The position numbers were made by a program, and so were the translations under genes. A stretch of DNA of 32,000 nucleotides from an uncultured Clostridia bacterium (GTDB lineage Bacteria; Bacillota; Clostridia; TANB77; CAG-508): contig CANRHQ010000004.1 of the NCBI GenBank assembly GCA_947630445.1, positions 20,301 to 52,300 of the forward strand, read 5' to 3'. Positions 1 to 20,416 of the stretch are shown here, in pieces (position 1 is the stretch's first letter; each line of letters starts with the position of its first letter). The notes beneath the pieces are model-generated. The model was not told the origin of the DNA. It saw only the letters and a program-made list of their open reading frames with translations, and did no database searches.

Positions 1-3000
1 TCTATATTCCAAAAGGTCTAATGCTGTAGAAGTATTTTTCTGTTGTCCCATGTGCCAATATGCATTTCCACCTTGAAGTGCAGCTTTTGCAGGATCTTGT
101 GTTACTATTGTAGACTTATAATTTCTTGCGTTTATTTCATTTCCATTTATAGTTGTAGCACTTGATAATTCACTTGTATCATTTCCATAAGTGTATCGTA
201 CTACATAACCATCTACTACTACTCCTGTAAATGTAAAGTTACCATTTGAGTCTGTATATGTAACTGCTGGTGTTGAACTACCATTAGCACTATATAATTC
301 TGCTACTTGACCAGTACTCATAGATATTAACTCAACTTTTACATTTGCTACACCTGCTTCACTACCTTCTCTAGTACCATTTCCTAATCTCTCATCAGCT
401 CCTCTGCTACTATCTTTACTGTCTTCCCATACTGTTCCAGACAATTGTTTAGGATCATTTAGTGATATTACAAATACTGGTGCTTTATCAGTATCATCTT
501 CATATGGTCCTGCACCTGGTACTACACTACCTGGTATAGAATCAATATCTACTCCTGCATATTGTGTATTTACTCTACTAGGTGAAAATTCAGATGCTGT
601 CTTTCTTTCTGCACATATTGTATTTTCTCCATATAATGTAGAAAATACATTTACTTCTGATGTGTTAAATAAGTCTTTTTCTCGTGTTGATAATAAGCTC
701 TTTACTACTTCATCTTTTATCTTAAATGTTATTTTGTGAACAGATGATTTACTTTGCGGTTCTATATATTCATTTATCTCTTTATATGCCGCTACATATC
801 CTCCGCCACTATAAGAATTTCCATATTTACTTGTATCTTTCCACTCTCCATCTAAATCAACAACCGACTCTAGTTCATAATTTGCATCATAGTAGTTTAC
901 AATTTCTCTAGCTATTAATGGTAATGTTTCTGATTGATTTTTAACAACAATGTCATATGTTACATGTATTTCTAAATCTGTAGTGTTTTTATCTGCTACA
1001 TATGCTACATCTGATGGATTAATTTTTCTTGTATATTTCTTTCCATCATCTGAGAAAGATGCCTGTATTGGTGCATTTATTATTCCTCTATGTCCATATT
1101 TATATGTGTATTGTTGTCCTTTCATTATAACTACAACTTGATTAATATCTGAGTCTAATGCTATATCTGGTTGTTCTCTTTTTACTAATCCAAAGTTTAC
1201 ATATTTTATTTTAAAATGATTATAACATGAACTATAACTTCCCCATTCTGCATGGTTATACTTTTCGCATTCATCCTTTTTTTCTGTAAATACTTCTGGA
1301 GAATAGTGCATTTCCTTCCATTCTACACTTACATATTTATGGGTTTCATCATTCCATCCTGAAACAACAGTTTTAATCCAACTTGCTGGATCATCCCAGG
1401 CCTCATTTTCATCATCACAATATATATTTTCTGTATAATCTTTCCATCCCCATTCTTCCGGTCTATGTTCTATCTCATCTTCTGCAACAACATCTCCTGC
1501 TAGAATTGGTGAATCTGTTCCTTTGTATACATCATATGCTTCTTTTATTACCTCATATTTTTGATATTTTACGGTTCCTATTAAATGACTTGCACTAGTA
1601 TCCTTTGTCCAATTACTTCCTTCTGAATAAACACCTCTCAATTTTTTACTTTGACTATGACACCACTTTGTATAAAATTCGTTTGAAATTGCATATTCGC
1701 TCTCTTTAATATTATTACCATGTGCTGGTCCATATTCATAAGCTCCTTCATCTAACATTTCATAACGACCATTTTTATCTATATTCTCTTTCCATGTTCC
1801 TAATAAATTTTGTGCTACTAATTTTGTGTCAGCTGTAACTTTGAATTTCTCCCAATTATCTTCATTTATTACATTTTGACCAGTATCTGGATCTTTTGTA
1901 TAATTTGTTTGAATTCCTGATGGTTCAATACTATCTTTTGTTATATCTGTAAATAATCCATCAACTGCCGTTCTTCCATATTCATTTTCAGTAGCTCTTG
2001 ATTTCCATTCTCCAGTAGAGCTTGAAGCTACTGTAGTATATTTTAATCCATTATATTCTATTTCTACATATGAATTTGAAAGTTGAGTAAGTATATCTTC
2101 TGCATATTCAAATGGATATATTGATTCAATTATAGAACCATATTGACTTATATAAGTCATTTCATAATATCCATCTCCTCCTGTTGTAGTTCTAGCAATT
2201 TCTCTTCCATCTGGCATAAACCATTTTACTAGTATTCCTGACATTGGTTTATCACCTCCAGATGATCCTCCAGATGATCCTCCAGATCCTCCTCCGAATT
2301 CGCCATCACTAGAATTTCCTTTTCCAGTAAACTCATCTTCCCATACATATCCAGAAATAGTTACCGTTCCTTCTCCTTCTCCAGAATCAGCAGGTTCTTG
2401 GTATTCAGGGTCTTTGACATTTGATATTGCTACCTCTTTAGTCTCATTAGCTGAAAATTCGAATTGTGTTATTTTTCCTATGTTTGCAGAATATCCTCCA
2501 TTAGCATTTGCTATTTCTTCTGCTTCATAGTTACCACCTAAAATTCCAGTTCCTTTTGCATCTACTCTACCAACACCATCTGCTCCTGTTACAAAAACAT
2601 ATGCATCTTCTTTATTTTGAGTATATCCCCAATCTCTCTGAACATTGTTTCCTTCCCATGCATCTATTGAATCTTCTCTAAATAAATCCATAAAATCGCC
2701 CGGTCCACCATCAGGTTTCCAATAATGTATATGCACATGTGGTGCATAATAAGCGGGGCAATCTTCCCATGGATAAGCCCATGATGCACCAGTTACTCCA
2801 GTATATCCAATTGTCTGACCTTTAGTAACTTTATCATTTACGCTAAAATTAGGCATTTCTTGCAAATGCAAAAATTTAACATACACTGTTTTACCGTTAC
2901 TTATTTTAAATTTCAATTTTATACTATATCCATCTCCACTTTTTGTTTTATATGTAACTCCATCTACAACTTTAGTTAATGTATTGCCCTCTTCTAAATG

Positions 3001-3990
3001 AACTTCCGTAACTGTTGCATCTGCTGGAGCTACAATTGGCGTTCCGGGTTCTGCTAAGACATCAACACCTCCATGTCCTTCATTGCCAGATCCTGATCCT
3101 AAAGGTCTTTTAACTCCATATGGATAAGCAATATCATAATGACCTGGAACAGGCCATTCCAATGAATCATTTTCAACAACTGGTTCATCTACTATATGTT
3201 GATCTTTAAGTGTTAAATATCCATAATTTTCATGTTTTATTAGAAATGAAACATTTGATAAGCTCTTTCCTGTAACAGAATCTGTTTTATGTATTGAGAT
3301 ATTAGAAGATGGCATATACAAATCCGAATCGCCTTCTCCTGCTCCTCCTAACTCAACTTCCCAAACTTGTTGGAATGCAGTAGTTGTTTCTCCTGATATA
3401 TATATATATATATCTACTGTACCTCCAGTTGCCATTCCATTTATAACAGCATTCATTACTCTATTAAATGCTACTGTTCCTCTATTTGACTCTCTATATA
3501 AATCAGCAACAGCATCCATTCCTGTTCCTATTCTAGCATCCAATCCTAATGGAACTTTTACATAATCTAGCCAGAAATTAATATATCCCCACAAAACTAA
3601 TTGAGTTGTAGAGTATCCTGTTCCAGCTGAATTCCAATATCCATATCCTGTTTGTCCAGTATATTGTCCTGACAATATTGTATACATTGCTATATTAGTT
3701 ACACCTGCATTACCACCTTCAACAGTTGCGCCTGTTTTCACATTAGTAGCTTTATCTCCCTCTATACGAATATGTTCTACTTGATTAAAAGTTATATCTT
3801 TTCTATAACTTGATTCTCCCTTTTTTGGGAAATGTGCATCATGGTCACCACAATATCTATTTGGTACTCCTTCAATATCTCCTCTGTTCCATTGAACTGT
3901 TGACCCTGAAACTCCATAGGAAATATTCTTTAATAGGAATATACACAATATTGTTATTAATATTGTTATAAAAACTTTTACTTTTCGCAT
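1..3990 (-). CDS. Giant surface adhesin, 3' end beyond the window (at least 1330 aa). Signal peptide, thioester-like N-domain, CnaB-like domain with a nested M23 metallopeptidase domain, then SdrD-B/CnaB-type stalk repeats. Paralog of 9226..13833.
   Basis: Absent from the ORF track because there is no stop in the window. I hand-translated the minus strand from ATG 3988..3990 (SD AAAGGAGGT upstream) to position 1; it is open in one frame throughout. N-terminus is MRKVKVFITILITILCIFLLKNISYG. Motifs: NRYCGDHD, STTQLVLWGY, HGGVD, PHVHIHYW. The last residues in the window (NARNYKSTIVTQDPAKAALQGGNAYWH) align with NARNYKSTIITTEPIKGAIQGNRNVMWH of the 9226..13833 product. Confidence 0.8.
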   Translation of the reverse strand, partial: MRKVKVFITILITILCIFLLKNISYGVSGSTVQWNRGDIEGVPNRYCGDHDAHFPKKGESSYRKDITFNQVEHIRIEGDKATNVKTGATVEGGNAGVTNIAMYTILSGQYTGQTGYGYWNSAGTGYSTTQLVLWGYINFWLDYVKVPLGLDARIGTGMDAVADLYRESNRGTVAFNRVMNAVINGMATGGTVDIYIYISGETTTAFQQVWEVELGGAGEGDSDLYMPSSNISIHKTDSVTGKSLSNVSFLIKHENYGYLTLKDQHIVDEPVVENDSLEWPVPGHYDIAYPYGVKRPLGSGSGNEGHGGVDVLAEPGTPIVAPADATVTEVHLEEGNTLTKVVDGVTYKTKSGDGYSIKLKFKISNGKTVYVKFLHLQEMPNFSVNDKVTKGQTIGYTGVTGASWAYPWEDCPAYYAPHVHIHYWKPDGGPGDFMDLFREDSIDAWEGNNVQRDWGYTQNKEDAYVFVTGADGVGRVDAKGTGILGGNYEAEEIANANGGYSANIGKITQFEFSANETKEVAISNVKDPEYQEPADSGEGEGTVTISGYVWEDEFTGKGNSSDGEFGGGSGGSSGGSSGGDKPMSGILVKWFMPDGREIARTTTGGDGYYEMTYISQYGSIIESIYPFEYAEDILTQLSNSYVEIEYNGLKYTTVASSSTGEWKSRATENEYGRTAVDGLFTDITKDSIEPSGIQTNYTKDPDTGQNVINEDNWEKFKVTADTKLVAQNLLGTWKENIDKNGRYEMLDEGAYEYGPAHGNNIKESEYAISNEFYTKWCHSQSKKLRGVYSEGSNWTKDTSASHLIGTVKYQKYEVIKEAYDVYKGTDSPILAGDVVAEDEIEHRPEEWGWKDYTENIYCDDENEAWDDPASWIKTVVSGWNDETHKYVSVEWKEMHYSPEVFTEKKDECEKYNHAEWGSYSSCYNHFKIKYVNFGLVKREQPDIALDSDINQVVVIMKGQQYTYKYGHRGIINAPIQASFSDDGKKYTRKINPSDVAYVADKNTTDLEIHVTYDIVVKNQSETLPLIAREIVNYYDANYELESVVDLDGEWKDTSKYGNSYSGGGYVAAYKEINEYIEPQSKSSVHKITFKIKDEVVKSLLSTREKDLFNTSEVNVFSTLYGENTICAERKTASEFSPSRVNTQYAGVDIDSIPGSVVPGAGPYEDDTDKAPVFVISLNDPKQLSGTVWEDSKDSSRGADERLGNGTREGSEAGVANVKVELISMSTGQVAELYSANGSSTPAVTYTDSNGNFTFTGVVVDGYVVRYTYGNDTSELSSATTINGNEINARNYKSTIVTQDPAKAALQGGNAYWHMGQQKNTSTALDLLEYR
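3396..3413 (-). repeat. (TA)9 dinucleotide microsatellite inside the adhesin CDS (encodes DIYIYIS)
   Basis: Uninterrupted 18-nt run atatatatatatatatat read directly. The paralog encodes KFYLLDNY at the aligned position and has no repeat. Confidence 0.9.
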
Positions 3991-4009
3991 GTTTCTACCT
4001 CCTTTCTCT

Positions 4010-20361: not shown

Positions 20362-20387
20362 ATTTTATTTTTTTAACCCCTTTCTAT

Positions 20388-20416
20388 ATAATACCACATT
20401 TTTCAGCATTTGACAA
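20388..20416 (-). promoter_or_regulatory. Candidate promoter for the VanW-led operon: -35 TTGTCA (20411..20416), 17-nt spacer, extended -10 TGgTATTAT (20388..20396)
   Basis: Read on the minus strand. The predicted leader is short (about 20 nt) and begins at the SD AAAGGGG, which lowers confidence. Confidence 0.45.

Follow-up and report, generated by a model that had tools for sequence, protein, structure and literature searches.

Tandem pairs of giant rod and putative thioester adhesin genes, one pair headed by a VanW-type gene, in uncultured gut Clostridia

Thioester adhesins of the TIE type, such as SfbI and Cpa of Streptococcus pyogenes, BaTIE of Bacillus anthracis and the TIE protein of pLS20, start with a signal peptide and an N-terminal thioester-type domain (TED) that bears a Cys, a TQ-helix and Gln motifs; CnaB/SdrD_B-type domains form their stalk, and an LPXTG-like signal stands at the C-terminus. 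In the FCT pilus of S. pyogenes, Cpa forms the tip, its VPPTG motif being joined to the shaft pilin Spy0128 by the class B sortase Spy0129, a dedicated enzyme carried by the pilus operon (PMC3019223). A further kind of fibrillar adhesin contains DUF11, a stalk domain with an isopeptide bond that has been renamed CLIPPER (Protein Sci 2025, PMC12617251), together with SdrD_B in long secreted proteins that are anchored C-terminally. As regards enzymes, Clostridioides difficile Ldt4 is one of the two proteins that revealed VanW domains to be Cys-dependent L,D-transpeptidases, which make 3-3 cross-links by a thioacyl-enzyme transpeptidation mechanism (PMC11348318), and C. difficile SrtB cuts (S/P)PXTG signals, SPSTG being among the peptides cleaved in vitro (PMC4155245). 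Here, we describe a locus in which such elements occur side by side, in a stretch of 32,000 nucleotides (hereafter the window; contig CANRHQ010000004.1, positions 20,301 to 52,300, assembly GCA_947630445.1) from an uncultured Clostridia bacterium. On its minus strand, a VanW/G5 gene is followed by two tandem cassettes, each made of a gene for a giant rod-like protein (D, then B) and a gene for a giant putative thioester adhesin (C, then A).

The reading that we favour, with a probability of roughly 0.55, is that of a co-expressed surface module composed of a fixed-length rod and a thioester adhesin whose head evolves fast, both with anchors of their own. The module would exist here as two diverged and separately controlled variants, one of them with a peptidoglycan peptidase and the first co-transcribed with an Ldt4-type enzyme.

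The listing of open reading frames (ORFs) gave the same five genes, order and coordinates as a first-pass annotation of this DNA: VanW/G5 (20361→18730, 543 aa), rod D (18707→13857, 1616 aa), adhesin C (13833→9226, 1535 aa), rod B (→4010) and adhesin A (3990→<1), of which the first 1330 of 1720 codons lie inside the window (1..3990). The ORF of B opens at 8914, but its likely start is ATG 8890 (1626 aa), since a Shine-Dalgarno sequence, GGAGG, lies 8 nt before this codon; it is also the start of the called gene on sister contigs. The complete A protein, obtained from a contig of the same organism (L009:14901-20063), has 1720 aa and ends with RITPPTG, a transmembrane helix and KKKVLIR; past A, this contig carries unrelated genes on the opposite strand. 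The genes are as tightly packed as had been noted, with 22 nt between the VanW stop and the D start, 23 nt between D and C and 19 nt between B and A, and each start is preceded by its own GGAGG or AGGAGG at a distance of 6-9 nt. Such tight gaps would be consistent with stoichiometric co-expression of the two partners of a pair.

The conservation of the pair is the main argument for a module. A scan of one genome per species gave 72 loci, all from metagenome-assembled genomes of uncultured Clostridia found in human, mouse, rabbit, goat and deer gut; the carriers include complete chromosomes of 1.55 and 1.70 Mb, as well as Clostridium sp. CAG:354, which belongs to the GTDB order TANB77, family CAG-508. 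The window itself probably falls in TANB77 as well. ORFs and families were mapped in all loci for the pairing counts. An A/C-type gene was found directly after a B/D-type gene, on the same strand, in 66 of the 70 complete cases (exceptions include L078 and L086), the gaps being mostly of -8 to +26 nt. The pairing holds at identities down to 28%, and the pair is kept even though the flanking genes differ between clades: in the other clade it resides in a different, conserved neighbourhood that is devoid of VanW. The co-occurrence of B/D and A/C homologues elsewhere, on which the first-pass annotation had staked its proposal, is thus the rule. The same cannot be said of its neighbourhood triad of VanW, DUF11 and TED-like genes, as VanW stands directly 5' of a rod gene in only 17 of the 70 cases (gap 9-34 nt), which form one sub-clade and all show the SDR–CBM53–VanW context seen in the window; the locus is therefore not generally VanW-led.

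It is common for a locus to have a second pair or an extra rod gene (L027, L029, L050, L070, L074, L076 and L021); at L021, an extra pair is inserted upstream and VanW still stands directly before a rod gene. In the window, the repeat has a DNA identity of 69-80% throughout, with a spacing of 9817-9862 nt for B/D and ~10450 nt for A/C, in line with the earlier view that the copies are old and that pairing was kept while the sequences diverged. B and D are collinear and 56% identical in a protein alignment, less than the 60-70% previously estimated by eye. More precisely, B–D identity is 55.7% versus 55.5% to orthologues in other species, and the best match of A is the adhesin of L017 (48%), above C (43%). 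L017 is the best match outside the own organism for both A and B, indicating that the pairs co-diverge. Pairing, extra pairs and co-divergence across species together suggest that the cassette diverges, duplicates and moves as a unit. A recent duplication or gene conversion is ruled out by the DNA identity that holds throughout the repeat and by the protein identities (55.7 vs 55.5%).

A variation on this arrangement was seen at L004:14210-23422, L012:19004-24785 and similar loci, where a third giant protein of ~3070 aa, with DUF11/SdrD_B domains, is encoded after the pair. Its last ~330 aa match the C-terminal module of B/D, and its gene seems to take the place of the second cassette of the window.

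Rod D (13857..18707, minus strand) consists of a signal peptide, ~840 aa of Ig-like domains for which no Pfam model exists, a DUF11/CLIPPER region at about aa 880-1270, SdrD_B at 1281-1380, a C-terminal domain, and a terminus made of SPATG, a transmembrane helix and RKRRGIR. Its paralogue B (4010..8890, minus strand) ends with SPSTG, a transmembrane helix and KKRKNKN. DUF11 scores above the Pfam cutoff of 24.6 bits in both proteins (51.1 in D and 31.1 in B), TIGR01451 of NCBIfam is also matched, and SdrD_B is above its Pfam cutoff as well. The name "DUF11 giant" given previously is therefore apt in part: of the many Ig-like domains only 2-3 are of the DUF11 type, and the DUF11 and SdrD_B matches are confined to the C-terminal 45% of the proteins. 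Residues 1-880 of the rod have zero Pfam or NCBIfam matches. An AF2 (AlphaFold2) model of D 1-880 built with 60 homologues shows an all-beta chain of Ig-like domains at a pLDDT confidence score of 88; its Foldseek matches were generic ones with low TM-scores throughout, namely to PrgB Ig-like domains, integrin-alpha legs and alpha-2-macroglobulin chains, and comparison of D with solved structures by sequence gave no match. No adhesive head or distal adhesive domain was recognised in B/D by Pfam, NCBIfam or AF2 with Foldseek. In this respect the rods differ from the known CLIPPER/DUF11 fibrillar adhesins (PMC12617251), which they resemble in combining DUF11/CLIPPER with SdrD_B in a long, secreted, C-terminally anchored protein. 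They are also unlike these adhesins in that ~840 N-terminal residues lie outside Pfam families and in that their length is constant and does not vary by repeat number.

Two lysines of the rod are invariant across the 60 homologues, K53 (in YFK[DN]E, residues 51-55) and K364 (in LYKGQ, 362-366), encoded in D at about 18543-18557 and 17610-17624 of the minus strand, respectively. K53 is located on the first strand of the mature rod and its motif resembles the YPKN pilin motif. Both residues could be either intramolecular isopeptide lysines or acceptors for an intermolecular linkage. Moreover, when D 1-880 was used in an exhaustive search, 1261 clusters (50% identity) were matched, with an E-value of ≤1e-30 for 671, and among the 150 best rod matches listed most are full-length (~1600-1800 aa) and aligned from residue 1. 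The rod thus represents a large uncharacterised family of ~670 clusters at 50% identity, the first 840 residues of which have no model.

Adhesin C (9226..13833, minus strand) has a signal peptide, a thioester-type head (aa 43-245; 13099..13707), a CnaB/SpaA-type domain (246-352), a Pro-rich linker, an SdrD_B-type stalk and a terminus made of TPPTG, a transmembrane helix and KKELEKKLK. Adhesin A (1..3990, minus strand) is organised likewise, with a signal peptide, a TED-like head (aa 28-215; 3346..3909), a CnaB-type domain split by an M23 peptidase, a Gly-rich linker and a stalk homologous to that of C. We searched both heads for the TED motif set defined by Walden et al. (PMC4450167), and all three motifs were found in both proteins. 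The [YFL]CΦζ motif reads YCME in C (82-85, C83) and YCGD in A (46-49, C47); the central TQxxΦW helix reads AQKALY in C (165-170, Q166) and TQLVLW in A (129-134, Q130); and ΦQζΦΦ reads WQRLM in C (232-236, Q233) and FQQVW in A (206-210, Q207). The AQKALY segment of C is helical in the AF2 model (H164-179), and homologues read TQKAIW at this place. Y82, C83 and Q233 of C are invariant in 14 homologous heads; in a 12-head alignment, the Tyr-Cys is again invariant, as are both Gln columns, and the head of A keeps every invariant column.

The relationship of these heads to known TEDs is remote. The Pfam TED model matched only 1 of the 12 heads, at E=0.05, and NCBIfam gave no direct TED assignment either. 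Nevertheless, with 22.8 bits over the corresponding region, the homologue at L042, from another species, exceeds the Pfam TED gathering score of 22, and the head profile is linked to L042 by hhalign with a probability of 98% (E=8e-14). Compared by sequence with solved structures, C gave only a weak SpaA CnaB match and A gave no match. The AF2 model of the C head (pLDDT 81) was matched by Foldseek to Cpa over 320-339 columns and to BaTIE over 158 columns at E ~1e-8, with a TM-score of ~0.22 to which the CnaB domain contributes; pilin CnaB domains were also returned. On the basis of motifs, remote homology and fold, and not of a direct Pfam match, we concluded that A and C are probably divergent TIE-type adhesins with a predicted thioester.

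The two adhesins are 41% identical across ~870 C-terminal residues, and their heads are homologous even though only ~22% identical; the M23 domain is found only in A. Only one stalk-domain match was recognised in the ~800 conserved residues at the adhesin C-terminus, and homologues of C are few and divergent (22 matches in a word-indexed search). Rod D has many homologues, for the most part of ~1600-1800 aa. Compared with described TIE adhesins, A and C share the signal peptide, the thioester-type head with its Cys, TQ-helix and Gln motifs, the CnaB/SdrD_B-type stalk and the LPXTG-like C-terminus. They differ in having heads too divergent for Pfam TED and a thioester that is a prediction from sequence, a stalk with a conserved C-terminal region of ~800 aa, a nested M23 domain in A, and a gene that, with few exceptions, takes second place in a fixed pair.

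The M23 peptidase domain of A (2626..3126, minus strand) is nested in the first stalk domain. It scores 41.3 bits against a Pfam cutoff of 28.7 and its HGGVD (306-310) and HVH (418-420) motifs are intact; the predicted peptidoglycan peptidase is probably active. When the insert is deleted, the flanks of A align across the CnaB-type domain of C with a score of 77, compared to 34 ± 6 (maximum 69) for shuffled sequences. The insert was absent from all other A/C-type proteins in the 72 loci and from 22 database homologues, M23 being present in 1 of ~90 adhesins examined. It would be unusual for the stalk of a thioester adhesin to house a peptidoglycan peptidase.

As for base composition, gene A (window 1-4000) has a G+C content of 31-35%, versus 23-30% elsewhere in the locus. 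This may reflect its Gly-rich composition, or an acquisition of the second cassette from a related lineage.

All four proteins end with a predicted sorting signal followed by a hydrophobic transmembrane helix and a basic tail. The signals of D (SPATG, 13860..13985, minus strand) and B (SPSTG, 4013..4123, minus strand) are exact fits to the (S/P)PXTG motif of C. difficile SrtB substrates, and the TPPTG of A (read on the contig of the same organism) and of C (9229..9348, minus strand) fits xPxTG. Homologues elsewhere depart from the SrtB substrates, their motifs often being without Pro or without Thr. Across the phylogeny, the two families keep different motifs: adhesins have [ILVT]-P-x-[T/F/Y]-G (PPTG in 31 and PPFG in 13, also PSTG and PATG), and rods have x-[IV]-x-T-G-[G/A/E]. 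Different processing fates of the two proteins would predict two such distinct anchor motifs.

Two sequence differences between samples were noticed near the anchor of D. In sample ERZ27249651, a G->T change in the codon of Gly1579 of the sorting motif (window 13980-13982; L002:7946-7948) gives TGA, so that D ends with ...LISPAT and loses its membrane anchor, at the point where a sortase would cut. With a coverage of only ~4x, either a sequencing error or a strain that secretes D could account for the change. In sample ERZ27249657 (protein P0144, 1594 aa), the last domain of D has an in-frame deletion of 22 aa (D ~1539-1560, window ~14028-14093), by which ...RAEIVESYNEYGKIDIDSIENNQ is lost, a strain-level variation.

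The VanW/G5 gene (18730..20361, minus strand) encodes a candidate Ldt4-type L,D-transpeptidase with an N-terminal transmembrane helix, PG_binding_4 (aa 110-220), VanW (327-456) and G5 (470-539). The Pfam matches are strong (VanW E=1e-50, covering the full model, 1-130/130; G5 4e-17; PG_binding_4 1e-13), and three segments, GGGICQISSTLYDAV (which includes the Cys-containing GGGICQ), RRNHQFVTSY and DATVVWG, are invariant in 18 VanW orthologues. The residues of the presumed catalytic Cys/His/Asp triad were assigned after PMC11348318. VanW corresponds to a characterised L,D-transpeptidase domain (PMC11348318). It should be noted that 4 of the 7 foreign VanW proteins tested in that study gave no signal, and activity of the present protein can therefore not be assumed. 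The order of transmembrane helix, PG_binding_4, VanW and G5 is that of C. difficile Ldt4, and the Cys-containing active-site motif is kept; the window protein is without the C-terminal disordered tail of Ldt4, and its gene opens a putative operon with genes for giant surface proteins, a setting not reported in the Ldt4 study (PMC11348318). Divergently from VanW, at 20556-21032 on the plus strand, lies a gene for a 158-aa protein resembling CBM53/CBM25 starch-binding modules, with no obvious signal peptide; it is kept in every VanW-type locus, always beside the SDR gene.

Expression signals were sought by pattern. An intrinsic-terminator-like hairpin (9215→9180, minus strand) with a perfect 16-bp stem, a 4-nt loop and a T-run begins 11 nt past the C stop, and a promoter-like site of the second cassette (8975→8947, minus strand; TTTACA, 17 nt, TATAAT) precedes B, so that the terminator and promoter proposed earlier are both present as pattern matches. 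The pattern scan gave a second candidate matching the promoter consensus for the B-A cassette (9020→8992, minus strand), and another consensus match lies 5' of VanW (20416→20388, minus strand; TTGTCA, 17 nt, extended -10 TG-n-TATTAT). Given that promoter-like sites are equally common in shuffled sequence (141 found vs 127 expected, without enrichment), the previously suggested division of the D-C and B-A cassettes into two transcription units is plausible from these patterns, and no more than that.

According to the mechanism that we propose, rod and adhesin would both be exported via the Sec pathway and held at the surface by their C-termini, most likely by a sortase encoded elsewhere in the genome. 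The rod, product of the first gene, would be a secreted chain of ~1600 aa of Ig-like domains, some of them isopeptide-bonded CLIPPER/DUF11 and SdrD_B domains, with an (S/P)PxTG end. The adhesin, product of the second gene, would react through its N-terminal Cys-Gln thioester with an amine of the ligand and form a covalent link. Both would act together as one adhesion module, the rod being the conserved structural partner and the adhesin head the fast-evolving specificity element. The cassettes would be separate transcription units with two specificities. The B-A cassette would add a probably active M23 peptidoglycan peptidase beside the warhead, while in the VanW sub-clade the D-C cassette would be co-transcribed with an Ldt4-type enzyme, whose 3-3 cross-links may reinforce or remodel the wall where the giant proteins insert.

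Several observations weigh against this reading. On the side of the adhesin, Pfam TED (PF08341) is not matched by A or C at E<=0.01, and the earlier designation as thioester-type adhesins thus owes its support to the motifs, the L042 profile link and the fold matches. The Cys motif of A, YCGD, has a Gly at a position expected to be hydrophobic, the head profile found no solved TED by sequence, and the Foldseek TM-score to Cpa is low (0.22), with a signal that comes partly from the CnaB domain. As regards anchoring, the motifs of many relatives have no Pro (xISTGG) or no Thr (PPFG, PPYG) and would be atypical sortase substrates. Moreover, no sortase ORF was detected in 88 loci with flanks of ≤10 kb (phmmer with S. 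aureus SrtA and a TLxTC scan), nor is a sortase family among the Pfam matches on record for the called genes of the loci. The locus is without VanW in most pair-bearing species (~49 of 66), and the enzyme could be a housekeeping cross-linking enzyme that is merely located upstream. Finally, any physical contact between rod and adhesin is hypothetical.

Contact between the two proteins is taken furthest by the idea of a covalent two-subunit fibre, a minimal giant pilus, in which a sortase would join the Thr of the adhesin TPPTG to a lysine of the rod, the rod being linked to the wall through its own motif and the adhesin sitting at the rod tip, like Cpa on the S. pyogenes pilus. This is the alternative that survives best, although we consider it doubtful. 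The fibre pictured in the first-pass annotation, a stalk or platform with a covalently binding tip, would be compatible with the data; rod and adhesin each have a C-terminal anchor of their own. The distinct anchor motifs kept by the two families across the phylogeny, the likeness of TPPTG to the VPPTG of Cpa and the invariant rod lysines, of which K53 lies near the mature N-terminus in a pilin-motif-like setting, keep such a tip-on-rod model alive; the strict adjacency of the genes and the Foldseek matches of the adhesin to pilin CnaB domains also speak for it. Indeed, the locus shares with the FCT pilus a (V/T)PPTG TED adhesin beside an Ig-like-domain surface protein with a different sorting motif. 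It differs from it by the lack of a sortase: none was found in or near any of the 88 loci, whereas the S. pyogenes operon has its own (PMC3019223). Besides, the partner is a single-copy rod of 1600 aa instead of a polymerising pilin of ~30 kDa, both partners being far above pilin size, and the present pair is not known to polymerise or to form a Thr-Lys link. K53 may also be an intramolecular isopeptide lysine, and the PPFG/PPYG adhesins do not have the Thr needed for the sortase acyl-enzyme.

A stronger version of the module would be an obligate two-protein surface organelle specific to this order, with the adhesin joined to the rod either covalently or via its conserved C-terminal 800 aa, and with VanW recruited in the sub-clade of the window as a dedicated wall-insertion or anchoring enzyme. 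We advance this tentatively, as the less probable extension of our reading. If true, Gram-positive bacteria would have a surface structure of a new kind, and VanW enzymes a second role, directed at proteins.

At the other extreme, the two proteins might have no functional coupling. B/D and A/C would then be independent wall-anchored adhesins, neighbours by shared ancestry and operon inertia, and their duplication would be an ordinary family expansion. It is true that each protein has a complete signal peptide and anchor of its own, that B/D and A/C share the types of module that make up their stalks, and that surface-protein genes often cluster. However, the survival of adjacency in 66 of 70 cases, in two genomic contexts and with identities of 28-56%, gaps near zero or overlapping, and a pair that duplicates or inserts as a unit (in the seven loci with additional copies named above) all argue against independence, and a rod that is headless and of fixed length would be unusual for a free-standing adhesin. 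We therefore regard an absence of coupling as improbable.

VanW itself could be the anchoring enzyme, its Cys-transpeptidase activity attaching one or both giants to peptidoglycan stem peptides as a dedicated assembly factor. Attachment of a protein by a transpeptidase has a parallel in E. coli, where YkuD-type L,D-transpeptidases attach Braun's lipoprotein. The position of VanW 9-34 nt 5' of the rod gene in 17 species, with its active-site motif intact, the fact that it stays directly before the rod gene at L021 despite the pair inserted upstream, the failure to find a sortase locally in the 88 loci, and the thioacyl-enzyme transpeptidation used by VanW domains (PMC11348318) would all fit. 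Nevertheless, VanW is absent from the locus in ~49 of the 66 pair-bearing species, classical tripartite signals of the sortase type are present on all four proteins, the only activity demonstrated for VanW is peptidoglycan 3-3 cross-linking, and the architecture is that of Ldt4, an enzyme of this very activity in C. difficile (PMC11348318). This makes VanW-dependent anchoring very improbable.

M23 peptidases cut peptidoglycan, and in the least credible of the alternatives the locus would be a cell-cell aggregation or mating module that binds other bacteria, like PrgB or the pLS20 TED adhesin, the M23 domain opening the wall of the partner. In its favour, Foldseek ranks the Ig-like region of PrgB first among its matches to the rod, conjugation of pLS20 requires a class II TED adhesin and a TraG/VirD4-like gene lies 2.3 kb away, but the PrgB match is to a generic Ig-like fold at a TM-score of 0.17, M23 occurs in only 1 of ~90 adhesins, the pair occurs without a TraG-like gene in most species, no plasmid match was found, and the TraG-like gene belongs, together with DnaD- and DnaC-like genes, to a conserved block of the chromosome in which no VirB4 or relaxase was seen.

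Returning to the co-expressed surface module, its building blocks are all known, namely TIE adhesins, CLIPPER/SdrD_B stalks, VanW L,D-transpeptidases, M23 peptidases and (S/P)PXTG signals. Their arrangement had been called unfamiliar in the first-pass annotation, and the literature searched likewise held no description of a fixed rod→adhesin pair across an uncultured order, of a VanW-led operon variant or of an M23 domain nested in a TED adhesin; no source naming these proteins was found. The locus is not the published TANB77 "pilin" locus, which is a Tad-type cluster with pilins of 143-236 aa (PMC11680825). TANB77 abundance has been linked to cancer immunotherapy response, with the Tad-type pilus implicated (PMC11680825). 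The carriers are uncultured small-genome gut Clostridia, and a conserved and probably abundant covalent adhesin would be a candidate for gut attachment and immune visibility. The position of VanW provides a testable lead on roles of VanW L,D-transpeptidases beyond bulk cross-linking, and proof that the two proteins form one structure, or that VanW acts on them, would make the locus far more significant.

An origin of the locus from a plasmid or mobile element was also considered and set aside: megablast of window positions 1-20500 gave no match to 72,556 plasmids, and the synteny is chromosomal and conserved. In the flank, DNA matches to plasmid records were found only at tRNA genes and a gyrA-like gene. 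Rfam recognised three tRNAs only, tRNA-Thr(TGT), tRNA-Glu(TTC) and tRNA-Lys(TTT), which form a cluster (21864-22139, minus strand) between the surface-protein locus and the TraG-like block. This block (22678-27965, plus strand) comprises the TraG/VirD4-like gene, three small ORFs, a DnaD-like (DnaB_2) gene and a DnaC/IstB-like ATPase gene, and adjoins a GyrA/ParC-like gene. The TraG/DnaD/DnaC block is syntenic in the related chromosomes seen (e.g., L012 and L014), again with no VirB4 or relaxase seen; it might be an element domesticated long ago, or might serve in replication restart as a module.

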